Shown here one piece after another: positions 25,547 to 50,848 of a stretch of 64,000 nt of DNA. A program made the translations under genes and the position numbers. The number at the start of each line of letters is the position of its first letter. The stretch's first letter is position 1. The DNA comes from an uncultured Verrucomicrobiae bacterium (GTDB lineage: Bacteria; Verrucomicrobiota; Verrucomicrobiia; Limisphaerales; Palsa-1400): NCBI GenBank assembly GCA_963707025.1, contig CAVPOM010000004.1, positions 256,001-320,000 on the forward strand. Reading direction: 5' to 3'. A model generated the notes under the pieces. It was not told where the DNA came from. It saw nothing but the letters and a program-made list of their open reading frames with translations, and did not search any database.

Positions 25547-25575
25547 TATGGTGGAGGCGGCGGGAGTTGAACCCG
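25547..25575 (-). repeat. att site (duplicated tmRNA 3' end)
   Basis: TATGGTGGAGGCGGCGGGAGTTGAACCCG, identical to 36284-36312. Confidence 0.95.
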
Positions 25576-25680
25576 ATTTTAGCGTTCGCGGCCATTCGCA
25601 AAAAGAGCGTTTACATAGGGAGAATTTGCGCGTTGTGAAAATCACGTCAAGAATAGATACGAACCAAAGCGAAAGTTTTT

Positions 25681-25788
25681 TGTGTGGAATTGTGTGGAAA
25701 AAAAGGCTGCGGGTTTTATGCCCGCGTCCCGGCCAATGATTTGCTTTTCCATGCTTTTCCAAACAGATTCCACACAGATTCCACACAG
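25681..25788. promoter_or_regulatory. Integrase arm-type binding repeats
   Basis: TGTGTGGAA twice (25681, 25691) and inverted TTCCA(A/C)ACAG three times (25757-25788); the same 9-mer occurs twice at 36222 and 36233. Confidence 0.75.
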
Positions 25789-26279
25789 TCTCACCGTGAC
25801 ATGCTGGCCCGGCCCGGAATGGCCGCCCGCCTGCCCCGGCCCGCTCATGCTCACCATGATGGAGGTTGCGCCCCGGCCTGCCCGCGCGGACCTGGCCGGC
25901 GTTCACTCCCGGCAATGCGCGGGCCTGCCCGGCTTGCCCCGGCCCGGTCGTTTGGCCGTGCCGCGTTCATTCCGGGCGATTGCGCGGACTGCCCGCGCGG
26001 TTCACTTGCCCCGCGCGGCCCGGCTGGCACGTCCAAAGGTTGGTAAAGCCGTTTGGGAAGGATTGCCACCAGGACGCATTTTGTTGGCAGGGGGGCTGTC
26101 ATCATGCCGCCCGGCCCGCAATCGCCTGCCCTTGCCCGCCGTTTGGAAGCCACGCGGCCCATTTTCTTGAACGTGTGAACGCGCCGGTCGGCAATCGGTG
26201 GGGGATTCGACACCAGGGGCGGCTCACCAGGTTTGATCGGCGGAAAGGTAGGAGAGTAATTCGCCTGGCCCGCCTGGCG

Positions 26280-26639
26280 TCATTGATATGTCGCCCATTG
26301 TGCGCGGGCATTCCGCGTGTCCGCCCGCCCGTCAAGCCACGCGAGATAATTCCGCATGTCGAATTGAACGAAAATGACTTCAACGCCACGGCTCCGCAAA
26401 TAATCCGCAAAATCCGTGTTGGCGTTTTGGCCGGCGGTGAAGTCCGCGTTGCTGTCCTGTTCACCCGCCAACAACCAATCCTCCTTGCAATCGTAAGCCG
26501 TCAAAGTCACGCGCGCGGGGATGTTGCCGCCGGCTGCAACGATTTGCTCAAATTGGCGGATTGCATCATTTGCAGTTGGCTGGCTCACGTCCAGGATGTC
26601 TGCGCCAGAATCCAGAGCACGGCAAGAAAAAAGAGGCAA
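26280..26639 (-). CDS. Hypothetical protein (island cargo)
   Basis: 119-aa ORF with globular composition, e.g. FADYLRSRGVEVIFVQFD..YLAWLDGR. Confidence 0.55.
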   Translation of the reverse strand: MPLFSCRALDSGADILDVSQPTANDAIRQFEQIVAAGGNIPARVTLTAYDCKEDWLLAGEQDSNADFTAGQNANTDFADYLRSRGVEVIFVQFDMRNYLAWLDGRADTRNARAQWATYQ

Positions 26640-27128
26640 CGATTGTCTGCCCGCGTTGCCCCGGCCCGGCCCGCCTTGCCTGGCCCGCCCTTGGCTTCCC
26701 GGCCCGGCCTGTCAATCAAAGCCCCGCCTGGCTCAATCCTGCCACAAGCCTTGCCCCTGGCATGGACTCTCTGCCCCGGCCCGCAAGGCTTCCCATAAAT
26801 CATCAATTGGAGGATACGGTCAAGCACGCATCGCCCTTGGCCGCCCCGGAAGCCTGGCACGTCCACGCGGGCGCAATTCCCGTAAAGTGGTTTTCGAGAA
26901 ACGGAGGGGGACGGCGCCCGCTGGCGATTTGCGGCCGGCCGCATTTGGATCCCCTGGCGTTCGTTTTCCCGGCCCGGAAAGGGGGGGTATAATGTCCCGC
27001 CCCGTCAATCAAAGCGCGTCCTGGGGCAAATTAGCGAATCTTTTTCAGGCGTGTTCTCTTAGACGCCTCAACAAGTATTTTAACGAGCTTGCAAACGATG
27101 GAATGGTTTGCATAATACCAATAAAGTT

Positions 27129-28578
27129 CACACCCGTCTCATAAGGGGAAAAGTCTGGTGCTGACCTGTTCATTTGCAAGGGTTTAATTGGTCTTCGGGG
27201 TAAAATGAGATTTTGATTTTTCCGAGTTTGGCTTTTGGGTTTGGTATGCGCCTGTTTGGGCGCGTGTGCTGTCCCATAGCTTTATTGGAAGCCGGGGAAA
27301 TACGCCTGCTCGGGCCGCGCCAAGTGGCGAAAGCTGCCGCCTGCTGTCCCATAGCACGCCAGCAAATTGAGCAGATCATATTTCTCCCAGAGCGCCGCCC
27401 GCAAAATCGTGAACAGCCGGGTGAAGCTGTGCGCCCAGTTGGAGAGGTGACTGAGGTAGCGCAACAGCACGTAGGTCAACAGCGCCGTCCACACCTGCCA
27501 GCGCACGGCGTTGGCGTTGTGGCCCAGAAAATCCGCCAACTGCAAGGTCTGCTTGATTTGTTTGAAGAAGACTTCGATCTGCCAGCGGCAGCGGTAAAGG
27601 TCGGCCACGCTGCGCGGACTCCACTCCAGGTTGTTGGTCAGGAAGGTCATTTCCCGTTCCTCTCCATCAATCTCGACCAGCGCCACCACCCGGCGCATCA
27701 ACTCCGGCGCGGGTTTGTTCTCGTTGCTCAGGACGATCACTTCGTCGCGCAAAATCTTCGGGTCTCTGGAGGCGGGCATTTTCCGCACCACCTCATAGCC
27801 CATGTTCTCCTTGGCCCGCGTCACCCAAAAGACCCCGCGCCCGTCCAAATCCCGCAAGTGGCCGAAGTCCACATAACCCTTGTCGAACAAGGCGATTTCG
27901 CCGCTCTTCAAGTCGGCGCACAGTTCCCGCGCCCGTCGGTTGTCGTGCTCGGCGGCAGTGTCCACAATGACAAAACCGGGCAAAAGATTCTGCAGATTCA
28001 ACCGCATATGGGTTTTGGCGGCGGCCTTGCGCCGGCGGTGCTTGGCCCAGTCCAGGCAGTTGGCCACCAGTTCCATGGTCGTGCTATCAATCACATGGAT
28101 GGGCATCTTGAAACGGAAGGCGGGGCCACGGCGCTGGCCCGCGGCAAAGCCGGGCGTCTGTGCTTTCAAATGCTCCAGGACCCGCCAGAAGAGTTGTTCG
28201 GCCATCTGGGCCGGACGCTCCCGGTTGGCGTGGGAGAGGCCGTTGCGGCTGGGGGCGCTGGCGCCGCGCAAAGTGGACAGCGGCCCGGAATGCAATTGCA
28301 GCGAGTCGCACAGATCGTTGAGTCCGATGCAATGGGTGAGTTGCGCGTCCAGCAAACTGACCGTGTGACTCCACGGACTGAAGGTGCGCGACTTATCCAG
28401 AGCCCGGTCTCCCGCGCTATTTTGGAGACTTCATGCGCAGGAATGAGATTGCAAATCTGGCGCAAAACGTTAAACCGGGACCGTGTCGGTTTGATTTTTT
28501 TGTTTTTCATGCCTGCCTTGTGGCAGGTTCAAATGGTCAAGCCAACACTTTTTTCCAATTTCCTGTGGGATGGCTGTG
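27129..28578 (-). mobile_element. IS4-family insertion sequence, copy 1
   Basis: Ends CACACCCGTCTCATAAGG / CCTGTGGGATGGCTGTG; 9-bp target duplication AATAAAGTT (27120-27128, 28579-28587); near-identical to 49398-50848. Confidence 0.95.
27282..28510 (-). pseudogene. IS4 transposase with a 1-bp deletion (GGG versus GGGG) near 28403
   Basis: Same protein as 49466-50695 but split into two frames. Confidence 0.85.
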
Positions 28579-28989
28579 AATAAAGTTCATGTCTTTGAGC
28601 CGATGAGAGACTTAATAAATCCGCAAGAACCGCAGGATATTTCCGACGCGGAAGCCACCTTGGGTTTCGAGAGGCTTTTGATTGAAGGGCTTGGGGACTT
28701 GGACAAAGACCAGACAAACCCGTTTCCGATTCCGGTTGTGGTAAAGATTTTGTCTTCATCTGATATTTTGCTCAAAACCTTTGATTTTGACGGGAGTATA
28801 ATATATTCTCATAAGCGGCGGGGCAACTCGAAGTCCTATCCAGTGAAAGAATGGCACCCCGTAGATGCCCCGGTCAGTGATGCCGCAGATTTCCTGTCCA
28901 GATATGCCAATCGCACCCACCCGGAAAGCGCATTCGCCCATACGATTATCCCATGCAGTTTTAAACATAGCAAAGCAAACTTTGGGTGA
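28579..28989 (+). pseudogene. Probable cargo ORF whose 5' end is cut by IS4 copy 1
   Basis: Open frame NKVHVFEPMRDLINPQ...KANFG* begins at the IS junction; AT-rich. Confidence 0.35.
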
Positions 28990-29070
28990 AACCCGCTCCA
29001 ACCAGGCTGATTTAATCCAGCATCCGAGTCAATCATAATGCCTTGTTTGCATCGCCCGCGCGGCCCGGCG

Positions 29071-29610
29071 TCAGGAGGCTTTGCGATTTTCCTCTGCTTC
29101 TTCAATTGAATCTATCCCGGCCCGCAACATTTTAAGAATTCTGGCGGCGGTCTCTTCCATTACAACGACCATTTCAGGGGCACGAAGTCCCTCAAGTTTC
29201 GGGGGAAGGTTATTTTGCAATTCTTGAAGCAAAACCTGTTTCTGATTGAGTGCGATGCTCCCGAAAATGCGTGACACATCGGACTTTTTCATATACAGCC
29301 CCTCGAAAAGCGCGTTCTTGTTTTCTTTCTCCTTTAGAGTCTGCAAAAGGCACAGGACTACAACATCTTCTTTGGGGGGTAATGCCTTTCCAGAAACATC
29401 CGGTTTGTTGGCTTCCAACCAAGGTTGGACTTCCCCGCAATGAATTTTGCCGTGCCGGAAGGCGAGACAGCCTTTTTTCTTGCACCATCGGAGAATTGAA
29501 ATCGTAATGCCAAGGTGGGATGACGCCTGGCCCAAAGTCTCTGCTATAAAATCCTTGGTCTTATACTCACCGCGCTTCCCTTTGGCTGTTTTCATTTTCA
29601 TCATCGGCAA
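29071..29610 (-). CDS. Putative terminase small subunit (lambda Nu1-like architecture)
   Basis: N-terminal winged-HTH-like (ASSHLGITISILRWCKKKGC...VQPWL), coiled-coil (LKEKENKNALFEGLY....V), C-terminal LPPKLEGL...E. Confidence 0.55.
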   Translation of the reverse strand: MPMMKMKTAKGKRGEYKTKDFIAETLGQASSHLGITISILRWCKKKGCLAFRHGKIHCGEVQPWLEANKPDVSGKALPPKEDVVVLCLLQTLKEKENKNALFEGLYMKKSDVSRIFGSIALNQKQVLLQELQNNLPPKLEGLRAPEMVVVMEETAARILKMLRAGIDSIEEAEENRKAS

Positions 29611-29743
29611 GGTTTAAAGTGGGGCTGGCGGCCCGGCGAAGCTACAGGCTCCGCGGAATGATTCAATTTTCAAGTTCCATCCGCCAGCCCCGGTTATGAC
29701 CAAAACGCCTCGGTTGGAATGTGAAGCGCAAAGGTCAAAGTTT

Positions 29744-30256
29744 TCATGTGTCAAATCGAATTCCGTTTTGCTCGGCGAACCTCTGAATATCGGCCTGGGC
29801 CTGGGCCAGTTGCGCCGTTTTCTGCTCAATGTAATCGGCGTAATAGCCCTTTGCCATTGGCAGGGCTGCCAAGTTCACGAATTGAGAGTATAGCTCGCCG
29901 GGCCGCGCTCCGCTTTCAATCATACCGTCCAACGCGGGATTGGCCCGGATAGGGTCATTGAGCATTCCTAAAAGTTCCTGGCCGCGCTTGATATACGCAA
30001 TGAGCAAGTCACGGCGGCGAAGCAAACCCTTCCATCGGTCTGTCAAAACTATTCCCCGCTCAATGTCCGCTTCCGCGCTCGCCAGTTCTGCTTTTATCCT
30101 TGTCTCATTTTGGAATGCCTGCGTCAATACTATTGGAATGGTTCCAGTAGGCGCGTTCCGCGCAGCCCATTCCTTTTGCCGCTCAGCAACGCCTTTCCCG
30201 CCTTCTTTTGCGAGCGAGAGAAAATCCGGGGCTTGTGGAGTAATTGTTTCACTCAT
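29744..30256 (-). CDS. Hypothetical alpha-helical/coiled-coil protein
   Basis: 170-aa ORF co-oriented in the putative late operon. Confidence 0.65.
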   Translation of the reverse strand: MSETITPQAPDFLSLAKEGGKGVAERQKEWAARNAPTGTIPIVLTQAFQNETRIKAELASAEADIERGIVLTDRWKGLLRRRDLLIAYIKRGQELLGMLNDPIRANPALDGMIESGARPGELYSQFVNLAALPMAKGYYADYIEQKTAQLAQAQADIQRFAEQNGIRFDT

Positions 30257-30270
30257 AAGTTTCGGGGTGT

Positions 30271-31059
30271 TTAGGATTCGGATTCGAGGAAGGCAATGAA
30301 AGCATCAATCATAGTTTGTTGCCGCCGGTGCATACCGCCAAAAATCCCGGATGGGGGGGGCGACATCCGCAAATTTGCAGCAAATGATTCTGCTGTCTGG
30401 CCGGGGATTTTTAAACCTTCAATGTAGTATTGACGTTCAAGCCGGTGGAGAGTTTCCGCGTCACTGCTGGACGTGGCGCAAATCCTGTTCGTTTCGACTT
30501 CGCCGAAAATCTCACATGCCAAAGCACCAAGTTGGTCCACGTCCAATCTTGCGACTTTGCGCCCTACAGGCGGAATGCTCGCCAAGCTGACCGGAATTTT
30601 GAAAGGGTCGTCATCGGTGGCCGGTCGCTGCAAACCATGAATGCCCGCGGCCATGTCCCGGCGGATGGATGCAGCCATTCTTTCGACACCGCGCAAAGAC
30701 CCGTCAACGGCTGGCCTGGCTGGCGATGCTGGCTTTGGCGGAATTGCCGATTGAAACGGCCTTGCCACATTTGCCACTGGCAATGGTGTAACCGGCAATG
30801 CGAACCTTGCCGTCCCGCCGGCGGCCTTCACTGCATCGCGGGTTTTCTGTGGTAACTCAACGGAAGGGTCGAGTTTGCGAAGCGCATCCCATTTTGCCAT
30901 AACTACTTTCATTTGCTCTTTGCGCTCAGTCCCGGAAAGCCCGGCGGCCTGATACGCGGCCCGAAAGGCGGCATCCACTACGGTATCACCTTTAGCGGCC
31001 CTAGCTTCTTGCTCCCAGACCAACACACGGCTGTAAGACGGCATCATAATCGTTTTCAT
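30271..31059 (-). CDS. Hypothetical protein with Pro-rich linker
   Basis: 262-aa ORF with two L.G.ER motifs (LSGTER, LRGVER). Confidence 0.65.
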   Translation of the reverse strand: MKTIMMPSYSRVLVWEQEARAAKGDTVVDAAFRAAYQAAGLSGTERKEQMKVVMAKWDALRKLDPSVELPQKTRDAVKAAGGTARFALPVTPLPVANVARPFQSAIPPKPASPARPAVDGSLRGVERMAASIRRDMAAGIHGLQRPATDDDPFKIPVSLASIPPVGRKVARLDVDQLGALACEIFGEVETNRICATSSSDAETLHRLERQYYIEGLKIPGQTAESFAANLRMSPPPSGIFGGMHRRQQTMIDAFIAFLESES

Positions 31060-31490
31060 CCTATAAATGCCACGGCGTTAAGCAAAACGAGCATTCTACA
31101 GGGGAAACGATTGTTAAGTTGAAGGTTGCAGGAATTGTCCTAAAGTGTTTTACGAAACATCCCGCCCTGCTGCTTTCGTAATTACCACAGCAACAAATGT
31201 GCAATAATTGGCGTGTGTTTTGTGAGTCGAAGTCCAGTTGACGGGCGGATTTTTTGAGTCCCGCCTTTCAGGTTTTTCCAGCATTGAATTAAGAGAGTGG
31301 GGGGGATGTCTTACCGTTTTTCCAGCATCTAACCTCAGTAAATTATATCAGGATTTAGCGAACTTAGGACTAAAAAACGATTTCTTTAGTCACATAGCGA
31401 ATCGGCAAAATTTCTCGGACACCCCAAGGGGAGTTAGGATGATAGCTTTCCTACCTGGGGGCCTATCGCTCACAACTCACCAGGATTGGC

Positions 31491-31973
31491 CTAACAAGTC
31501 ATAGGATTGATTGTGGCGGCCCTTGGCGGGCATGGTGGCACATTGGAGCATCCGGCCAATTCTGCGCGGCCTGGCTGGCTGATTATGCTTTGGCCCGATA
31601 GATTTAATTTGCGTGAGACTTCCGCCATGATAGCCTGGAATTCCTCGTAACTAATTCCATGCTTTCGAGCAAGTAAGGCGGTTGCTTCGTTGGGACTGCT
31701 CAAGATAAGGCCAGTTATCACGGCCAAAGCGTCAAGCAAGACCTCTGGCCGGCGGGACTCTGACAGATAAATTAGGAGCGCCCTTACGCTTTCCAAAACT
31801 TCACCCCGGATTTCGTCGGCGCTGTCGTCTTGCGGCTCTGGGTCATTGCCGGGGACACATTCAATCGGCACAAGTTGCACAGGGATGCGTTGCCCGTCTT
31901 CCCACGCTACTTCGCCACCGTCCAAAATGCGTTTCACAAAGACACGTTTTACGGATTGGCTCTGCCTTGTCAA
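31491..31973 (-). CDS. Hypothetical protein with C-terminal HTH-like segment
   Basis: ATALLARKHGISYEEFQAIMAEV resembles an HTH. Confidence 0.5.
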   Translation of the reverse strand: MTRQSQSVKRVFVKRILDGGEVAWEDGQRIPVQLVPIECVPGNDPEPQDDSADEIRGEVLESVRALLIYLSESRRPEVLLDALAVITGLILSSPNEATALLARKHGISYEEFQAIMAEVSRKLNLSGQSIISQPGRAELAGCSNVPPCPPRAATINPMTC

Positions 31974-32144
31974 TACTCAATCATCGTCTTTGGCGTCAGA
32001 TTGTGCATCAATGGCCGCGTGCAAGCGGGTCGCCCAGCTATGGACTCTGGTTGCATCTGGGTTTTCGCCGTTTTGTCTTGCCGTAATTACTGGCTTTGAG
32101 CCCCTGAAGCTGGCGGTCACAACGCAGGCAGTAAATGGCTTCAC

Positions 32145-33185
32145 TCATGGTTCAAATGCTCTGGCGGAGTTTCTTAAATTGCTCTTGCTCCTTTGCAATT
32201 TCCTCTGGCGTTTTGGTGGCAAGCGGCTTTTCGCGGGGATCATGGGAGTTACCTTCAATGCCGCTGCTCGCTTAAGGTCAATGGCAGGTTTAATCCGCTT
32301 CCCATAGAAACTCCGCGCCTGTGCAAGGTCCTGCTCAAATCGGCCGGGGTCGCCGATGAGATTATCAAATTTGAGCGCCCCTTGGTTCCTCTTGTAAGCT
32401 CCTTGGTTCGATTTCGCATTTGCGATTCCTTCACGGATTAACTTGACCACGAGCTTGAAGTCATCATGGGTGAATGGGTTCTGATGGGTGATTCCGTATT
32501 GAAGCCATTCAAACCATTGGCGCTCCCGGGCCATGTCCAAGGCAATTTCAGAGTAACCAGTGAGCTTTTGGTAAAGCTCGTGGAAGGCTTCGATCTCTTT
32601 GCCTTTGTCTTTTGGAATTTCTGAAAAAGGAGAGAGAGAGACGGGCTTTTCTTTGTCTTTTTCTTCGCCTTCTACCCTTATACCCTTATAGGATGTGGTT
32701 AGCTGATGGTTCGCTGATGGTTCGCTGATGGTTAGCTGTTGGTTACTTTGATGGTTAGGCTGATGGTTAGGTGGCTCAATGGAAACAGCAAAAAGCCTTG
32801 TGTCACAGAGCTTTGCAACCGTTCCTTTGATGGTTCCATTCTTGGCTGGTTTGAAGGTTGCAAAACCTGTTACTTTCAAAGCTTTTATCGCGCCTCTGTA
32901 TTCGCCTCTGGTTAGCCCGCATTCCCAATAATCACCTAAATAGGCTTCACCGGGCTGCAACTCATGTTCATTGTAACCTTTGGTCCACTGGGTTCGGTCC
33001 GCAATGTGCCACGCCAAGAGAAAGGCACGCGGATATTTCTTGGCGAATGCCCTTGCCTCTGGCCCGCGTGTTGCGGCAAAGAATCCCTCTGGCGGAATGC
33101 CGTCTGGATAAAGCCGTGAAGGTTGCTCTCGGCCCGCTGCATTTTCACTCTTGACAGCCGGTGTCTCTGTAGGGTAATCTGGCAT
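32145..33185 (-). CDS. Phage-type replication initiator (lambda O-like organisation)
   Basis: N-terminal wHTH-like (GLTRGEYRGAIKALK..GF), repetitive NHQ linker encoded by DNA repeats, helical C-terminal domain. Confidence 0.65.
   Translation of the reverse strand: MPDYPTETPAVKSENAAGREQPSRLYPDGIPPEGFFAATRGPEARAFAKKYPRAFLLAWHIADRTQWTKGYNEHELQPGEAYLGDYWECGLTRGEYRGAIKALKVTGFATFKPAKNGTIKGTVAKLCDTRLFAVSIEPPNHQPNHQSNQQLTISEPSANHQLTTSYKGIRVEGEEKDKEKPVSLSPFSEIPKDKGKEIEAFHELYQKLTGYSEIALDMARERQWFEWLQYGITHQNPFTHDDFKLVVKLIREGIANAKSNQGAYKRNQGALKFDNLIGDPGRFEQDLAQARSFYGKRIKPAIDLKRAAALKVTPMIPAKSRLPPKRQRKLQRSKSNLRNSARAFEP
32702..32768. repeat. Iteron array (candidate replication origin) inside rep gene
   Basis: Six GCTGATGGTT-like copies at 32702, 32713, 32724, 32735, 32747, 32759 (11-12 bp period). 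Confidence 0.7.
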
Positions 33186-33245
33186 AGAGTTAAAGTTAAT
33201 TGTTGACCTGCCGCGTGTTCTTGACAGGGAGCGCGGCGGGTTTTT

Positions 33246-33494
33246 TTATTGGCTCGGTTTCCAGGCTGTAGCAATGGAATTATTGACGGCGGATTTGATC
33301 TCCTTTTCAGGGACGGCCCGGCCGCAATTCTTGACGGCATCGGCCAGCAGGGTTTCAATCTGGCCTCGCTCCAAGTGCCGGTGCAAGTGGCGACTGACAT
33401 TGAATAAGAAGGGATGCACTCCAAGTGGTGATTTTGGGCAGGAATTGACTTTAGCTTGAAGCCACTTTGGCAGGTTGGACTGAGCGGCGTTCAT
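33246..33494 (-). CDS. Small protein resembling a primase C-terminal (PriCT-like) helical domain
   Basis: SCP....GVH.FLF.V.R.LH......I..LL......GR.VPEKEI..AV..S. Confidence 0.5.
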   Translation of the reverse strand: MNAAQSNLPKWLQAKVNSCPKSPLGVHPFLFNVSRHLHRHLERGQIETLLADAVKNCGRAVPEKEIKSAVNNSIATAWKPSQ

Positions 33495-34006
33495 GGCTTA
33501 TCCTTTTTCCGCCTCTTGGCTGCCTGGCGGCATCGCCGGCGGTATTCTTGGCTCCGCTCGCCTGGCAAAAGTGCCCGCTCGCCAAACGTCTCTGTCAAAA
33601 GATTGCCATGCTGAGAAACGGCGGCGGTTGACTTGTCAAGAAGTCTGGCTATCTTAACCCGGCTCAATCCTCTTTCTTTCATCGAAATGACTAGAAGCGC
33701 ATTCATCGCCAGCGCATCCCGTTTTTCAGGCGGCAGAGGGACAATCTTATTCGTATCTGTTTCGACAATTTGCTTTATATTGACTGCGCTTCCCAAAAAT
33801 GCGGCGTCCAAGCGAACCAACGTCAACCGCTCCAATCTGCGAACAGCCCGCACGGTAGATGCTGGCGACATGGCTTCACGCTCCTCTTTTTCCATCGTCA
33901 AGCTGGCCTGCTCCTTTTCGTCAAGGTCGGTAAATCCGTTCTTTGTTACCAACGGAACGATATTGTCACCTTCAAAGGCATATCCCGCCTGTAGTGCTTT
34001 GGGCAT
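33491..34006 (-). CDS. Hypothetical protein with C-terminal HTH
   Basis: LSRVKIARLLDKSTAAVSQH; basic tail; overlaps the next gene at ATGA. Confidence 0.6.
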   Translation of the reverse strand: MPKALQAGYAFEGDNIVPLVTKNGFTDLDEKEQASLTMEKEEREAMSPASTVRAVRRLERLTLVRLDAAFLGSAVNIKQIVETDTNKIVPLPPEKRDALAMNALLVISMKERGLSRVKIARLLDKSTAAVSQHGNLLTETFGERALLPGERSQEYRRRCRQAAKRRKKDKP

Positions 34007-34022
34007 GGCCTGGCCTTTGGCG

Positions 34023-34253
34023 TTACCGGGCGACACGGCAGGTCCGGTCCAAGTGCGCTTGCACGTCAGACAAACGAAAGCGCACCATCCTTTCGCCAAG
34101 TTTGAAATATGGCAGAATGCCTCTCGCCATGAAGTTATCTACCGTCCTTTGCGTGATCTGCAACTTGACGGCGATCTGGGCCTTTGTTAAGAGTTCTTCA
34201 CTTCCCGGCATTGCCGTTGTGTGACCGATTGGAACGGATGTATTCTTGTTCAT
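34023..34253 (-). CDS. Excisionase/AlpA-like HTH protein
   Basis: LLTKAQIAVKLQITQRTVDNFMARGILPYFKLGERMVRFRLSDV. Confidence 0.85.
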   Translation of the reverse strand: MNKNTSVPIGHTTAMPGSEELLTKAQIAVKLQITQRTVDNFMARGILPYFKLGERMVRFRLSDVQAHLDRTCRVAR

Positions 34254-34383
34254 CACCAATACGCACCATGTCAACGTGATTACAAAACTATGATGGATTT
34301 ACCGAGTAAGAACGGCTTTTTAGATAGTCGTGATTGATAGATTGTCCTTGCAATGTCTCTTGAAATGAGCGAGATTTAGGCTT

Positions 34384-34833
34384 GTGAAAAGAAAGAGCAT
34401 CAAACCTTCAGAACTGGCGGCCATGCTAAACCTGTCTCATCAGCAAGTCAGAAGGCTTGCCATTGCTGGCGGGATTCCAGAGACGATCAAAACAAACGGC
34501 GGCCATTATCGCTTTCGCAACACACCTTGCTTTACTCGGTGGGTTGCCACTGAAAAAGGCCGTCTGTATCGGCAGGATATTTTAAGAAGCGCAAAGTCAG
34601 AGGCTCACGAGCGAGCAAGAGCGGAGCAAAGCGCCTTTCAGCCTCTTTATGAGTTTAAGCGTTGGTTGAAGAAAAACCCTGTCACGCATGAGACGGCAAC
34701 TTGGGTGATTCGCAGGCTTGCAGAAGAATTGGAGCCACTGGTTAAGTATTCCGCATCGCTCAATTCGGAAATAAATGCCCGTGGCCTGAGCCTTCCCGGC
34801 AAGGGGGATATGAACACAAGGGACACCCTCTGA
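34384..34833 (+). CDS. HTH (Xis/MerR-like) DNA-binding protein, divergent from the excisionase
   Basis: KPSELAAMLNLSHQQVRRLAIAGGIP...TNGGHYRF. Confidence 0.7.
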   Translation: MKRKSIKPSELAAMLNLSHQQVRRLAIAGGIPETIKTNGGHYRFRNTPCFTRWVATEKGRLYRQDILRSAKSEAHERARAEQSAFQPLYEFKRWLKKNPVTHETATWVIRRLAEELEPLVKYSASLNSEINARGLSLPGKGDMNTRDTL

Positions 34834-34986
34834 AAACGTGCCTGGGGTCAAATGCGCTTCAAATCCGGCCCGCCTGGCGTTGCCGGTCGGTTCAAGCCCG
34901 GCCAGCCGTCAAAGGGAAGCGCGGGCTTCACTTTGCCTTTTCAAATCCATCAATTACGGGATTTCCGATAGCAGGTTTTACAGATT

Positions 34987-36213
34987 TCAGACGGCGGCAA
35001 GGGCGATGATTTTCTCGCCACTGGCGGGGGCAACGAAAAACCACGCCTGCGCATCCGACGGCCTCACAATTTCCCGGTAATTGCGGAAAATCATCGTCGG
35101 CGAATTGCCGCATTCCAAGGCCACTTGCGCGACGTTCTGAATTTGCGCCACTCGGTAGGAAATGAAACTGTGCCTGAGCGCATTCGCTTTCCAGGGAATG
35201 CCGGTTTTCTTGGATAGCCGGGCGATGGGCTTTTGCGTGTTCTTGAACCGCCAAAGTTGGCCTTCGGGTTTGGCGATGGGCAAAAGCCATTCCCGCAAAT
35301 TGGGCAGGATGGGGACAAGGCGGCGTTGCGCCGTGCCCTTGTGAGCGTGAACCGTGATATGGTTGCGTTGCAAGTCAACGTGTGACCAGTCCATACGCTC
35401 AATTTCAGAACTGCGAAGCCCGGCAAAAGCGCCAATGGCAACAAACGCCCTTGTTTCATCATCCGCCCCGGCCAAAAAGGCGGCAATCTCGTTTGGCGTG
35501 AAAATCTCAATTGCGCCAGTCCGTTTCTTTGCCGATGCGATTTTGTCAGCGTCAAGATGATCTTTCGGAATGTAACTCTGTGCCACGGCAAACCTGAAAA
35601 GTGAAATAATCGCCATGCGGTAATTGTTTCGAGTCCGGCCTGACACGTCCAAGCCCCTGAGCCAGCCGGAAATGTCCGCCTCAGTCACGTTGCCGATGTT
35701 GCACGAAAACGACTTGGCAAAAGTCCCGCAACGATTGTCCAAGTCTTTGATGTGCCGATGGGATAAGCCGTCTGCCTTTTTCGCGGCAATCATTTCCGCG
35801 CAACATTCCGCAACGGTTTTCTGCGGTGCATTCAAATTGTTGCGCTTGCGGTAAAACTTCGCGGCGTCCACTAGGGACACCGCCCTTGGCAAAAGTTTGG
35901 ACGCCTCGGCAAACTGCATTGCGGCCATTTCCAGGGGGACGCCAAAGGGCTTCAACGTCTCGACGGCCCGGATGTATGCAAGCCGGTCCTCGCCCGTCAG
36001 GTCCAGGGACACGACCTCGCCCCGCGAAAGTTCATTAACCTTCGCGGCGGCTTCGTCTTTGGCTTGCTGCGGGTCGGAAAACGACTTCACTTGCCGCTTG
36101 CCGTCCGGCCCATACCAGGCCAGCCGGTATTCGACATAATGACGATTTTTTATGCGATAGATGGTTACTGCGGCGTTGCCGCGTTTCACTTCAAGAGGAA
36201 ATATGTCTTTCAT
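34987..36213 (-). CDS. Tyrosine integrase
   Basis: AGLRSSEI (catalytic R), NALRHSFISY (H-x-x-R variant), GNSPTMIFRNY (catalytic Y); N-terminal arm-binding domain. Confidence 0.93.
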   Translation of the reverse strand: MKDIFPLEVKRGNAAVTIYRIKNRHYVEYRLAWYGPDGKRQVKSFSDPQQAKDEAAAKVNELSRGEVVSLDLTGEDRLAYIRAVETLKPFGVPLEMAAMQFAEASKLLPRAVSLVDAAKFYRKRNNLNAPQKTVAECCAEMIAAKKADGLSHRHIKDLDNRCGTFAKSFSCNIGNVTEADISGWLRGLDVSGRTRNNYRMAIISLFRFAVAQSYIPKDHLDADKIASAKKRTGAIEIFTPNEIAAFLAGADDETRAFVAIGAFAGLRSSEIERMDWSHVDLQRNHITVHAHKGTAQRRLVPILPNLREWLLPIAKPEGQLWRFKNTQKPIARLSKKTGIPWKANALRHSFISYRVAQIQNVAQVALECGNSPTMIFRNYREIVRPSDAQAWFFVAPASGEKIIALAAV

Positions 36214-36283
36214 GGTGAAATTGTGTGGAATTTGTGTGGAAAAGTCAACCTAAAAAGTTAAGTGCTTGATTTACAAGCACTTA

Positions 36284-36312
36284 TATGGTGGAGGCGGCGG
36301 GAGTTGAACCCG
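36284..36312 (-). repeat. att site overlapping the tmRNA 3' end
   Basis: Identical to 25547-25575. Confidence 0.95.
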
Positions 36313-36638
36313 CGTCCCTGACAAATTTGCCGGCCGCGACTACATGCTTAGTCAGAAGAGAGTCTCAACCGCCGGATAAGGTCCTGACGCCAATCCGGCA
36401 GTCCAGCCCGCATGAAATAGTTTCGATGAAACGCGCGCGGACTCCGCGCCTCACCTAACCTGCTGTGGCGTTCGTCCTTCGTAGCAGGTGTCCGAAGGGG
36501 AACGTCGCGGCGCATTTAGGCCGCGAGAGCTAATTCTTGGTTAGCACTTATTTTTGGTTCGATTTTTTACGAGGCCAACGAACCGTCCTCGGCATGCCGC
36601 CTCCAGCGCATCTTCCAGGTCGAAACCAGTACGCCCCC
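36286..36638 (-). ncRNA. ssrA: tmRNA
   Basis: 5' GGGGGCGTACTGGTTTCGAC; 3' GGTTCAACTCCCGCCGCCTCCACCA; G3:U acceptor wobble; tag ORF GCT AAC CAA GAA TTA GCT CTC GCG GCC TAA (ANQELALAA). Confidence 0.97.
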
Positions 36639-47241: not shown

Positions 47242-48582
47242 TCATTGGGAACTGATGCGGTAGTACCGTCCGACGCTGCCTGGCTGAAAAGGTTCGCTGA
47301 AATAATACGCGCCGTTGGTCAGGGTGAGGCTTTGCAGCGGAGTCCAAACGGGGCCGGCGAGATTGGCGCAGGCTTCCACCACGATGGGGATATTGGTGGT
47401 GCCGGTGATGTTGAAGCCAAATTGACCGTTCTGCACGCCAAAGCTGCCATCGCCGGTTTGAATCAGCGGGTTCCACAGCACGGCCGGATGCCCGGTATTG
47501 GCGGAAAACTCACCCCAGCCGGTCGTGCCGGGCAAATAATAATTGGTCACGGGATCGCCTGGACCTTCTCCAACATCATTGAAAACAGACCAATCAGCGG
47601 TGGGAGCATGACCCTGGAAATAAAGACTGGTCAATTTGGAGCAGCGTGCGAAGGCGCCCTCCCCGATGCTGAGCAGGCCGCCCGCGATGGCGGCATTGGT
47701 GAGGCTGGTGCAGGTGTCGAACGCATAATTCCCGATGTTGGTGACGCTGCCGGGAATCCTGACGTTACTCAAGTTGGTGCATAAAAGGAACGCATAATCC
47801 GCTATGGTGGTGACGGTGCCGGGAATGTTGTAACTTCCGGCCTTGCCCCCTGGATATTCAAGAAGCGTAGCCTCGCGCTTGTCGAACAAGACTCCAAGCA
47901 AACTGCTATAATCTTGATTGTTTGCATCCACCGTGATCGCCGTGAGGCCGGTGCATTGAGGGAAGGCTCCCTCGATGTTGGTGACGCTGGCGGGAATCGT
48001 CACGCTGGCCAGGCTGGTACAGCCGTAAAACGCGCCGCCTCCGATACTGAGGACGCCGTTGGCGATGGTGGCGTTTGTCAGGCTCGAACAGTTCTCGAAG
48101 GCAGATTCCCCGATGGTGATGAGACTGCCGGGAATCGTGACGCTGGTCAGGCCGATGCAGTCCACGAACGCAAGCTCCCCGATGCTCAGCACGCCGCTGC
48201 CAATGGTAACGGTAGTCAGGCCGTGGGAAGTTTCGAACGCCCCCACCCCGATGTTGGTTACGCTGTCAGGAATGGTGACGTTGGTCAGGTAGTCGCAGTT
48301 GCCGAACGCATTGACGTCTATGTCGGTGACGCCTTCGGGAATAATAACACTGTCCAGGTCGGCGAGGCTCGAGAACGCGTTTGGCCCGATGATGGTAACT
48401 GGCAGGCCTGTGTCGTTCGTGGCTGGAATGGTCAGATTCCCTCCAGCGCCTGAATAACCGGTGAGGGTGACAGTGATGCCGTCAGCATTCGTCGTGAAAC
48501 TGTATTGCGCTTGGACGCCCGTCGGTGCGGCTAACAGCGCGACCATCATGGTAATTATTCCACCCAAAATCATTTTCTTCAT
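47242..48582 (-). CDS. BspA-type leucine-rich repeat surface protein
   Basis: Signal peptide; repeats LT.VTIP.SVT.IG..AF..C. Confidence 0.92.
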   Translation of the reverse strand: MKKMILGGIITMMVALLAAPTGVQAQYSFTTNADGITVTLTGYSGAGGNLTIPATNDTGLPVTIIGPNAFSSLADLDSVIIPEGVTDIDVNAFGNCDYLTNVTIPDSVTNIGVGAFETSHGLTTVTIGSGVLSIGELAFVDCIGLTSVTIPGSLITIGESAFENCSSLTNATIANGVLSIGGGAFYGCTSLASVTIPASVTNIEGAFPQCTGLTAITVDANNQDYSSLLGVLFDKREATLLEYPGGKAGSYNIPGTVTTIADYAFLLCTNLSNVRIPGSVTNIGNYAFDTCTSLTNAAIAGGLLSIGEGAFARCSKLTSLYFQGHAPTADWSVFNDVGEGPGDPVTNYYLPGTTGWGEFSANTGHPAVLWNPLIQTGDGSFGVQNGQFGFNITGTTNIPIVVEACANLAGPVWTPLQSLTLTNGAYYFSEPFQPGSVGRYYRISSQ

Positions 48583-48627
48583 GCAAAACTCCTTTTCTGT
48601 TTATTTTGATCCCTCATCCTGCCCCGC

Positions 48628-49397
48628 CTATGGGAAACTGATGACGCCGCCAATATAACCGTAGGCGTCGCAAAACCCAAATCCATAAACCTGGACTTCA
48701 AACGGCTGGGAGCTGGTAACCTTATGCGTACCCCACTCCACCGGAACTCGGGCTCCGGAATAACCACTGCTCCCAACCTGTACGAAATTGGTCCCTGCCA
48801 AGTTCGTGCTATCCAAGGCGGTCGTTGATATCGCTGATTGAGGCACAATGAGAGTCAAAAAAGTTTTGTAAGGAGCTGACTGCCCGTCAAGATAGGCTGG
48901 AATAACGATTGTGTAAGAGCTCATATAATGACCTGCTGGCGGCAACAACATCTCCAGAGGATCTCCTTCGTGTTAAGTTGATTGTCGAATTCAGCCCCAT
49001 TGGCGAATTGGGCGACTTGAATGGGTTTGTTGGCCTGGAATTGCACCCATCCTTCGAGGATGGTGTCAAAGAAATGCCCTGCCCCTAGGCTGTTGGTCAC
49101 TACACCGTTGATCGTCGTTGTGGTCACGACCGTAGCGTCATTCGCCGCAAGGACACGATAACTGTCACCGTTGGTTCGATCCGCGAAGGAAAGAGCCAAC
49201 GCTTCTGTTCCCCACGAAGCGAGAGGGAGTTGCTCCTGCACAAGCGGATTCTCATACTGAGTGTTGGTATCCGGGAGATAGGCAGCATTCGCACCGGCGA
49301 ATACTGCAATTGGATTGGTCGAAGTGATCAACGTGCCCGTCACATCGTTTGTAAACGTGATGCTGTTGATTTCATAGGTTTCTCCTTGGTTCAGGTT
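48628..49397 (-). pseudogene. C-terminal part of an IgGFc-binding-domain surface protein (IS-disrupted, frameshift near 48975)
   Basis: DVTGTLITSTNPIAVFAG, EQLP...WG, KPIQVAQF, EGDP.EM, S.QPF.VQVYGFG..DAYGY.GG. Confidence 0.8.
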
Positions 49398-50848
49398 CAC
49401 AGCCATCCCACAGGAAATTGGAAAAAAGTGTTGGCTTGACCATTTGAACCTGCCACAAGGCAGGCATGAAAAACAAAAAAATCAAACCAACACGGTCCCG
49501 GTTTAACGTTTTGCGCCAGATTTGCAATCTCATTCCTGCGCATGAAGTCTCCAAAATAGCGCGGGAGACCGGGGCTCTGGATAAGTCGCGCACCTTCAGT
49601 CCGTGGAGTCACACGGTCAGTTTGCTGGACGCGCAACTCACCCATTGCATCGGACTCAACGATCTGTGCGACTCGCTGCAATTGCATTCCGGGCCGCTGT
49701 CCACTTTGCGCGGCGCCAGCGCCCCCAGCCGCAACGGCCTCTCCCACGCCAACCGGGAGCGTCCGGCCCAGATGGCCGAACAACTCTTCTGGCGGGTCCT
49801 GGAGCATTTGAAAGCACAGACGCCCGGCTTTGCCGCGGGCCAGCGCCGTGGCCCCGCCTTCCGTTTCAAGATGCCCATCCATGTGATTGATAGCACGACC
49901 ATGGAACTGGTGGCCAACTGCCTGGACTGGGCCAAGCACCGCCGGCGCAAGGCCGCCGCCAAAACCCATATGCGGTTGAATCTGCAGAATCTTTTGCCCG
50001 GTTTTGTCATTGTGGACACTGCCGCCGAGCACGACAACCGACGGGCGCGGGAACTGTGCGCCGACTTGAAGAGCGGCGAAATCGCCTTGTTCGACAAGGG
50101 TTATGTGGACTTCGGCCACTTGCGGGATTTGGACGGGCGCGGGGTCTTTTGGGTGACGCGGGCCAAGGAGAACATGGGCTATGAGGTGGTGCGGAAAATG
50201 CCCGCCTCCAGAGACCCGAAGATTTTGCGCGACGAAGTGATCGTCCTGAGCAACGAGAACAAACCCGCGCCGGAGTTGATGCGCCGGGTGGTGGCGCTGG
50301 TCGAGATTGATGGAGAGGAACGGGAAATGACCTTCCTGACCAACAACCTGGAGTGGAGTCCGCGCAGCGTGGCCGACCTTTACCGCTGCCGCTGGCAGAT
50401 CGAAGTCTTCTTCAAACAAATCAAGCAGACCTTGCAGTTGGCGGATTTTCTGGGCCACAACGCCAACGCCGTGCGCTGGCAGGTGTGGACGGCGCTGTTG
50501 ACCTACGTGCTGTTGCGCTACCTCAGTCACCTCTCCAACTGGGCGCACAGCTTCACCCGGCTGTTCACGATTTTGCGGGCGGCGCTCTGGGAGAAATATG
50601 ATCTGCTCAATTTGCTGGCGTGCTATGGGACAGCAGGCGGCAGCTTTCGCCACTTGGCGCGGCCCGAGCAGGCGTATTTCCCCGGCTTCCAATAAAGCTA
50701 TGGGACAGCACACGCGCCCAAACAGGCGCATACCAAACCCAAAAGCCAAACTCGGAAAAATCAAAATCTCATTTTACCCCGAAGACCAATTAAACCCTTG
50801 CAAATGAACAGGTCAGCACCAGACTTTTCCCCTTATGAGACGGGTGTG
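49398..50848 (+). mobile_element. IS4-family insertion sequence, copy 2
   Basis: Same ends and sequence as 27129-28578 in opposite orientation; no target duplication. Confidence 0.95.
49466..50695 (+). CDS. IS4-family transposase (intact)
   Basis: IDSTT, FDKGY, YRCRWQIEVFFKQIKQ (YREK motif). Confidence 0.95.
   Translation: MKNKKIKPTRSRFNVLRQICNLIPAHEVSKIARETGALDKSRTFSPWSHTVSLLDAQLTHCIGLNDLCDSLQLHSGPLSTLRGASAPSRNGLSHANRERPAQMAEQLFWRVLEHLKAQTPGFAAGQRRGPAFRFKMPIHVIDSTTMELVANCLDWAKHRRRKAAAKTHMRLNLQNLLPGFVIVDTAAEHDNRRARELCADLKSGEIALFDKGYVDFGHLRDLDGRGVFWVTRAKENMGYEVVRKMPASRDPKILRDEVIVLSNENKPAPELMRRVVALVEIDGEEREMTFLTNNLEWSPRSVADLYRCRWQIEVFFKQIKQTLQLADFLGHNANAVRWQVWTALLTYVLLRYLSHLSNWAHSFTRLFTILRAALWEKYDLLNLLACYGTAGGSFRHLARPEQAYFPGFQ

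Follow-up and report, generated by a model that had tools for sequence, protein, structure and literature searches.

A candidate PICI-like satellite island at the tmRNA gene of a Verrucomicrobiota bacterium, with a putative lambda-type small terminase and a predicted capsid-scaffold mimic

We analysed a 64,000-nt stretch of DNA from an uncultured Verrucomicrobiae bacterium (contig CAVPOM010000004.1; hereafter the window), and in particular an element at positions 25547-36312 of the window that lies at the gene for transfer-messenger RNA (tmRNA, ssrA). Four VPDSG-CTERM domains, a type linked to Verrucomicrobiota, are in keeping with a host of this phylum. An initial annotation had described this element as a helper-dependent satellite with the layout of a phage-inducible chromosomal island (PICI) and no structural genes, and that description is supported both by the identity of its small terminase subunit (TerS) and by the existence of related elements that lack the large subunit (TerL). 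We are confident that it is a real, largely intact satellite-like island of satellite origin. We also consider it likely that the island is a PICI-like satellite that would be packaged by a helper with a lambda-type (GpA) terminase, and we predict that the product of one open reading frame (ORF), ORF262, takes the place of the helper's capsid scaffold; we are less sure of this mechanism as a whole, capsid redirection included, than of the satellite origin. The features on which this reading is built are as follows.

25547 to 25575, unstranded: distal attachment (att) core, which repeats the final 29 bp of tmRNA with 100% identity.
36284 to 36312, unstranded: proximal att core, formed by the 3' end of the tmRNA gene, which is intact.
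36286 to 36638, minus strand: host tmRNA gene (ssrA), the integration target.
25681 to 25787, unstranded: arm-type repeats TTCCACACA on the distal side, five copies in both orientations.
36222 to 36241, unstranded: arm-type repeats adjoining the proximal att core, two copies.
34987 to 36213, minus strand: tyrosine integrase (PF00589; phrog_1, E 3.5e-31).
29071 to 29610, minus strand: ORF179, predicted lambda/Nu1-type TerS, with a winged helix-turn-helix (HTH)-like domain and long helices.
30271 to 31059, minus strand: ORF262, with a C-terminal 'X' domain (aa 166-262) and an internal motif (aa ~113-140).

It can be seen that the island is bounded by two att cores that agree at 29/29 positions, the second of which is the 3' end of tmRNA, just as had been annotated. 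Seven TTCCACACA-type repeats lie beside the two cores, and 6/6 exact matches of the repeat in the 64-kb window are found there; this is the pattern expected of integrase-binding arm sites, which the repeats probably are. The att sites and arm repeats are intact, again in agreement with the initial annotation, and its recognition of an integrase is borne out by the Pfam and PHROG matches listed above. The GC content of the island core is 0.515, compared with 0.62-0.64 in the flanks. Once an IS4-family insertion sequence (IS) is subtracted, the island measures 9,278 bp, close to the ~9.3 kb that had been estimated.

The 17 ORFs of the element were scanned against Pfam, PHROGs and NCBIfam. Markers for TerL, portal, protease, capsid, scaffold and tape measure gave no match in the element (E<=0.01), and the same marker scan detected no left-over fragments of head or tail genes. 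The PHROG comparison of each ORF, which the initial annotation had proposed, returned weak TerS-family matches and otherwise nothing structural. The two scans agree with the initial annotation, in which no capsid, portal, TerL, tail or lysis genes were recognised. PADLOC, when run on the element, reported an HTH cross-match only.

ORF179 taken alone matched phrog_57 at E 0.043; among its aligned relatives 45/115 matched this family (E<=1e-3), while Pfam Nu1 or DUF1441 was matched by 2/115. In language-model comparisons its neighbours were DUF1441/Nu1 clusters (0.93-0.95). In the structure model (pLDDT 89) long helices follow a small domain of two helices and a hairpin, the layout expected of a gpNu1-type TerS, but the fold check that had been suggested for this gene was borne out in that respect only: Foldseek superimposed the model on the DNA-binding domain of gpNu1 (1j9i) with a root mean square deviation of 1.9 Å over 54 columns at E 1.7, which is not significant, and fold searches gave no significant match to a solved structure, VIA-align returning generic helical hairpins only. 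The decisive evidence is gene context. Homologs of ORF179 in phages directly precede a GpA-type TerL, and a TerL lies <=4 kb downstream in 29/65 TerS-homolog loci, its identity having been confirmed (phrog_15) in the six that were checked. The nearest IMG/VR relative of ORF179, at 47% identity, is the TerS of phage locus L244, which heads a TerS-TerL-portal-protease-scaffold-capsid module, and the two form a sister pair with an approximate likelihood ratio test (SH-aLRT) value of 98 in a quick tree, the careful tree search being unfinished. Homolog context and phrog_57 family matches thus support the assignment of 29071-29610 as a lambda/Nu1-type TerS, which had first been made from the letters alone. 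Single-protein and close-alignment patterns found no TerS or ORF262 relatives in IMG/VR, nor were any found in the genome-contig collection searched. Close TerS homologs P0176-P0186 (cluster of P0004) are named 'siroheme synthase' in a source database, apparently through mis-annotation.

A TerS profile search of 401 genomes of the host order gave matches in 51; flanks were covered for part of these, 20 further stretches not being among them. Five att-bounded relatives of 7.0-11.5 kb were found that carry an integrase and TerS and lack TerL, portal and capsid genes, as judged with a marker set that detected 6/6 control phage loci.

L130: tRNA-Leu site, 10,256 bp, tape measure present.
L136: tmRNA site with the identical 29-bp core, 10,774 bp, tape measure present.
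L139: tRNA-Thr site, 7,033 bp.
L223: tRNA-Ser site, 8,949 bp, tape measure present.
L226: tRNA-Thr site, 11,481 bp.

All five have the layout of integrase, replication gene and TerS, and L136 has it at tmRNA with the 29-bp core of the window element. About a dozen partial loci look alike (integrase and TerS, TerL-less). L225 was left out of the att-bounded set, as its repeats are not a tRNA end, and L128, automatically labelled 'small', was treated as a prophage copy by its tree position. Tape measures of 450-764 aa are encoded at L136:10852-13146, L130:10384-12066, L223:11956-13308 and L240:5497-6900, where no capsid or tail-tube genes were detected, and prohead-protease-like genes occur without a detected capsid gene at L149:3327-4067 (an element with two scaffold-like C-terminal motifs), L020:10514-11347 and L227:16136-16957. 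Labels assigned by eye mark possible anti-phage cargo, a TIR-like protein and toxin-antitoxin-like pairs, at L136:13432-14277, L225:6433-7822 and L232:6508-8017. Full GpA-type prophages are also found among the TerS-matching loci of the order. One prophage type has a DNA-methylase block before TerS (L012-L016, L125-L133, L140; e.g. G279, G329, G385, G617); it reaches up to 8 copies per genome, many of them truncated just after TerS or TerL.

The last 97 residues of ORF262 match a protein of L226 at E 6e-7, and with a two-sequence profile of this X domain the proteins of four more TerL-less elements came next among 16,720 ORFs (E 0.016-2.2). When the two best profile matches were added by hand, the X domain formed one family with members in five TerL-less elements, each from a different genome, and a profile built without ORF262 recovered ORF262 at E 1.1e-6 in the same ORF set. 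The domain matched no phage locus examined and was found in 1/301 genomes of the class, the window's own. Three further X-like proteins (L147, L130, L228) were not counted, the match being weak (hhalign 7.5%). Close homologs of ORF262 (57-64% identity) were found in four other records. Searches of Pfam, PHROG and the ESM Atlas, and of PDB sequences with the X profile, gave no solved structure or family for ORF262; a single-sequence structure model was discarded (pLDDT 44).

The TerS genes of the five X-domain elements fall in different parts of the tree, and small-element TerS genes at large are scattered among those of phages. This combination of one shared domain and scattered TerS genes fits a single satellite gene pool whose members would pair with different helpers. 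A gene common to TerL-less islands with unrelated TerS is predicted by a satellite lineage and not by an eroded prophage. Such erosion would mean that the island is a lambda-like prophage whose TerL-to-tail and lysis genes were deleted internally with the ends kept, leaving it immobile or passively mobilised. It would accommodate the position of ORF179 as sister to a phage TerS and not to other small-element TerS, the phage relatives of the replication initiator-like gene and of ORF160 (see below), the frequency of decayed GpA prophage copies in the host order, and the IS insertion, remnant-like short ORF82 and frame change seen in the island. However, the ORF262 domain occurs only in TerL-less small elements, by which the prophage-deletion account is largely refuted, and it is also at odds with the layout common to five independent att-bounded elements, with the ORF262 homologs in other samples, with a 74%-identical initiator relative that has the same neighbours, and with the lack of head or tail remnants. 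We therefore regard erosion as quite improbable. The initial annotation had stated that the satellite reading would fall if homologous elements elsewhere were full-length prophages; what was found were five att-bounded, TerL-less elements sharing a gene that is absent from the examined phage loci.

Residues ~113-140 of ORF262 are kept in the four close homologs and resemble the last 25 residues of the L244 scaffold, that is, the scaffold encoded in the module headed by the sister TerS. In an independent, later set of loci the third match of 4,649 ORFs was the scaffold C-terminus of L286 (E 0.89), whose capsid protein is of the same type as that of L244 (phrog_212, E 2e-32); the L244 and L286 scaffolds, both from loci with phrog_212-type capsids, rank first and second among 487 phage-locus C-termini. 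The C-terminal motifs of relatives offer cleaner support for scaffold mimicry than the internal motif of ORF262 itself. A four-sequence profile of the C-termini of proteins from L139, L148, L223 and P0175 matches a phage protease-scaffold at E 1.6e-8, and a profile of five phage scaffolds matches a protein of L149 at E 1.5e-5. A fourth scaffold class had no island match. We predict that ORF262 is a scaffold mimic that would act on the helper capsid.

A further link between small elements and phages is the motif AAGGAATCT, which lies <=600 nt upstream of the TerS HTH in 16/24 small-element loci and 6/30 phage loci, against 0.001 expected per 600 nt; the small-element and phage labels were assigned in this analysis, and ~10 of the phage loci are near-copies of one AAGGAATCT-less prophage type. 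Forty-six IMG/VR contigs contain a longer form of AAGGAATCT, with TerL <=2.5 kb downstream in 23. The contig ends 32-34 nt past AAGGAATCT in 8/46 (7 distinct sequences), and a ninth ends after 2 nt. This suggests that AAGGAATCT may be a packaging-termination or cut-site signal, cosQ-like and ahead of the cut. The core of the motif is conserved upstream of TerS/TerL in GpA-terminase phages (L258-L303 from IMG/VR, L017, L135, L229, L231, L238 and L248).

The gene order of the island, read from tmRNA, is integrase, divergent HTH gene, Xis/AlpA-like HTH gene, ORF202, ORF82, a 346-aa ORF and ORF55, after which the same strand continues with ORF160, ORF262, ORF170 and ORF179; beyond these lie a cargo ORF of opposite orientation and 1.3 kb of largely non-coding DNA. 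The remaining features are listed below.

34384 to 34833, plus strand: divergent HTH_17/MerR-like regulator of 149 aa, a possible repressor by its position.
34023 to 34274, minus strand: excisionase (Xis)/AlpA-like HTH_17 protein.
33491 to 34099, minus strand: ORF202, an orphan with a possible C-terminal HTH (NCBIfam Tfx at E 0.086 only).
33246 to 33494, minus strand: ORF82, a separate gene homologous to the N-terminal module of a longer protein from the replication region.
32145 to 33185, minus strand: phage-type replication initiator-like ORF of 346 aa, with an internal 11-bp iteron-like array at ~32689-32771.
31491 to 31973, minus strand: ORF160, weakly related (loose threshold) to HTH-type genes.
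29744 to 30256, minus strand: ORF170, a helical protein in the position of a coiled-coil-like gene in related elements.
28570 to 28989, plus strand: orphan cargo ORF of ~128-139 aa, with its first listed start inside the IS end and no significant family.
27129 to 28578, minus strand: IS4-family element with a 9-bp target duplication, outside the core genes.
25790 to 27119, unstranded: stretch of high GC content (0.60), rich in repeats and largely non-coding, with a single orphan ORF of 119 aa at 26280-26639 (minus strand).

The excisionase-like gene and HTH proteins of the initial annotation were recovered, with HTH_17 above the cut-off at both 34023-34274 and 34384-34833; a MerR match (E 3.6e-4) falls below it. 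HTH-type relatives of ORF160 lie near packaging genes in prophages and also occur in one related element, and ORF160 may be a regulator. A leave-one-out profile test failed to recover ORF170 or the other coiled-coil genes beside ORF262, so that homology among them is not claimed.

The 346-aa ORF contains 6.5 copies of an 11-bp repeat, and a 74%-identical metagenomic relative has 6.9 copies at the same place and the same neighbouring genes. Phage O-type initiators hold iterons within their own gene. Nine database relatives of the ORF lie beyond its own cluster, and its C-terminal domain is found in two 53-kb phage contigs. Near 32,245, at a short C run, the frame changes, and the last 38 codons are shifted with respect to a database protein of 94% identity; the IS copies show the same one-base variation, which makes an assembly indel likely. 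An initiator with iterons had been annotated; the iteron array was recovered, and the ORF is initiator-like. Over 75 aa, ORF82 is 43% identical to the N-terminal part of a 334-aa protein from the replication region of another small element; the label of PriCT-like gene given to it earlier was not upheld, since none of Pfam, PHROG and NCBIfam gave a match for this 82-aa ORF. Replicases of related elements are O-like, DnaD-like or primase-helicases (clear in several), so that the O-type initiator proposed for the satellite is not a trait of the family.

The stretch 25790-27119 is a candidate place for a packaging site. Imperfect CCCGGCCCG-type repeats are numerous in it, and a 24-mer related to them is found again immediately downstream of terS (29046-29069). 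Promoter and terminator counts are at the level of chance. The IS4 copy of the island, 1,450 bp long, sits in its distal part; the genome has 44 full copies that are >99% identical, indicating recent expansion, which in the window is seen at 27129-28578 and in the 48,400-50,700 region. These copies vary by one base (1452/1453), as would be expected of homopolymer indels in the assembly. Among 20 tmRNA regions from members of the host's family, none was an empty attB with the left flank of the island. Seven of the 20 (L177, L179, L184, L186, L189, L191, L192) have a complete or partial related integrase directly downstream of tmRNA, and all seven carry unrelated cargo and show no TerS. We conclude that tmRNA is an integration hotspot in the host's family.

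From the observed gene content, att structure and family relationships a cycle of five steps can be proposed. The divergent HTH pair would silence the island until helper infection or induction, whereupon integrase and Xis would excise it at the tmRNA att cores. The initiator would then bind the iterons within its own gene, and the circle would be replicated by host helicase and primase. Island TerS, which would derive from the helper's TerS clade, would package island DNA together with helper TerL, in the manner of the TerS of Staphylococcus aureus pathogenicity islands (SaPIs) or of Rpp in E. coli. Finally, the ORF262 motif would dock on the helper coat protein, compete with the scaffold and favour small capsids, as SaPI1 CpmB does. 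Relatives have other motif types, which match other helper scaffolds, and some of them add a tape measure.

Several observations weigh against this scheme. Excision, circle formation, replication and packaging are all steps that the island is supposed to undergo on the strength of its sequence. Contigs of four public runs showed no att-att junction, a result that is uninformative as it covers contigs only; one of these runs is ~100% identical in short patches and may be the same strain, and so is not independent. A search of the genome (88% complete) for a GpA-type TerL, a lambda-type portal, any other TerL or a second TerS found none, and we predict that the helper is an L244/L286-like phage from outside. 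The initiator label is weak, three PHROG families (initiator/DnaD-like) having matched at E 0.002-0.009 in 1-2/10 members, with the iteron array and the C-terminal domain common to two phages as its other basis; the window protein itself has no Pfam or PHROG profile match. ORF82 as a possible remnant, the frame change in the initiator and the IS insertion together mean that this copy may be partly decayed. The window element also lacks AAGGAATCT, as do three of its four nearest phages, the fourth being truncated upstream. The element either uses another packaging signal or has lost its site, and another signal is conceivable because three of the four nearest phages are also without AAGGAATCT.

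Other points bear on ORF262. Its scaffold-like motif was first spotted by eye, lies in the middle of the protein and not at the C-terminus, and in a blind search was the second non-self match of 17,252 ORFs at E 0.23 (hhalign probability 12%); the reverse search is topped by five ORF262-family proteins (2,797 proteins, E 1e-4 to 0.017) but is partly circular. A genuine helper-dependent satellite might then use helper capsids of normal size, as monomers or concatemers in a PICMI- or VEIME-like way, with ORF262 playing no part in capsid remodelling and its motif due to chance or vestigial. The shortness of the motif and the lack of a solved or family match for ORF262 sit comfortably with this, as does the fact that most known PICIs miss one of five core components and that SaPIs are without a capsid gene, according to the description in PMC10085698. 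Yet the motif is conserved in the four close homologs and singles out the scaffolds of one capsid type, and in other family members C-terminal motifs of scaffold type score far better. We consider a satellite without capsid remodelling somewhat unlikely. Less likely still is an integrative element that is not packaged at all but travels in vesicles or with conjugative helpers, and whose TerS-like protein would be a regulator or an anti-phage inhibitor of the helper terminase. The missing AAGGAATCT could be read in that way, and the integrase family (present in 110/301 genomes of the class, E<=1e-30) is used by many unrelated islands, at tRNA as well as tmRNA genes; against this, the family repeatedly combines TerS with scaffold-like motifs, head proteases and tape measures, and the scan of the 17 ORFs recognised neither a relaxase nor a conjugation gene. 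We judge such an element to be very improbable, and retain a PICI-like satellite as the preferred reading.

What is known of satellites comes from a few clades of Proteobacteria, Firmicutes and Actinobacteria, and the mechanism of capsid redirection is established for few proteins (Sid, CpmAB, Ccm, TcaP and Rcm). If the basic reading alone holds, the result is solid but unsurprising, adding one phylum to the range of PICI-like elements. More tentatively, and with somewhat more doubt than belief, we suggest that it typifies a previously undescribed satellite family, found in Verrucomicrobiota of soil and peat and built on a modular scaffold mimic, in which a satellite-specific domain is combined with swappable capsid-binding motifs copied from the scaffold of the exploited helper, TerS is repeatedly captured from the helper, and a tape measure is sometimes added. 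Were this true, TerS clade and motif type would predict the helper's capsid type from sequence, and the CpmB solution would have been reached independently, in plug-in form, in an abundant soil phylum. AAGGAATCT could serve as a marker in the search for genome termini and for more satellites.

We compared the island gene by gene with the PICI definition in the published SatelliteFinder description (PMC10085698). Like the PICIs described there, it has an integrase, HTH regulators, a putative replication gene and TerS in that order, and its size is near their median of ~9.5 kb. The element is bounded by att sites and has an integrase, a regulation module and TerS are present, and portal, tail, holin and head-tail genes are absent. 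As to the replicase, the window has an initiator-like ORF with iterons, and several relatives have clear primase-helicases; as to the optional capsid-morphogenesis gene (type B PICIs miss one component), there is no capsid-like gene, and ORF262 has its scaffold-like motif. The island differs from PICIs in having a phage-type initiator with internal iterons instead of a primase-helicase and in lacking an HK97-like capsid-modifying gene, and relatives L130, L136 and L223 carry tape measures, which the PICI model excludes as tail genes. The island would work like a PICI, and its formal membership among PICIs is probable. The TerL, portal, capsid and head-tail connectors of cf-PICIs are not present, nor are the TerL, portal, capsid, tail and lysis genes of an intact lambda-like prophage, and no P4-like gene (Psu, delta, Sid, epsilon, alpha primase) was matched by Pfam or PHROG among the element ORFs at E<=0.1.

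As written in PMC10085698, >99.9% of 1,436 PICIs are from Proteobacteria or Firmicutes, and in the open-access literature (main texts) we found no PICI-type satellite described in Verrucomicrobiota, nor a description of this island family or of exchangeable scaffold-like motifs. The initial annotation knew of no described satellite in this lineage; within the literature searched, that holds for PICI-type elements but not for VEIMEs, virion-packaged satellite-like elements reported to be hosted by marine Verrucomicrobia (PMC9618062). According to that account VEIMEs resemble the island as small tyrosine-integrase elements, some with a TerS closest to that of co-occurring phages, and differ in that Verrucomicrobia-linked module 3 has plasmid-like rep/par genes while TerS is described for module 6. 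Satellites with tape measures are known from EPIPs and PLE11 (PMC12822802), and the combination of tape measure and TerS without capsid recurs in three of the five complete relatives; EPIPs as described there have a serine integrase and head-tail adaptors, and the window element has no tape measure.

The island shares with E. coli PICIs that encode Rpp a homolog of lambda-type TerS, Rpp being reported to hijack the lambda/phi80 terminase (PMC9026076), and most relatives have the helper-shared AAGGAATCT ~60-130 bp upstream of the TerS gene, as in the E. coli cos-rpp arrangement given in the same report. Rpps are put there at 139-154 aa and are thought to be without a TerL-binding tail, whereas the island TerS is full-length (~176 aa), is 47% identical to a phage TerS, and has no AAGGAATCT in the window copy; it may act as a stand-alone, SaPI-style TerS. 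SaPI1 CpmB, as described in PMC5644958, shares a short C-terminal motif (RIIK) with the helper scaffold, binds coat protein by it and so competes. By analogy, ORF262 would share just such a short motif with a helper-type scaffold C-terminus. It differs from CpmB in its length of 262 aa, its own conserved domain and the internal position of its motif, and the island family appears to exchange at least three motif types.

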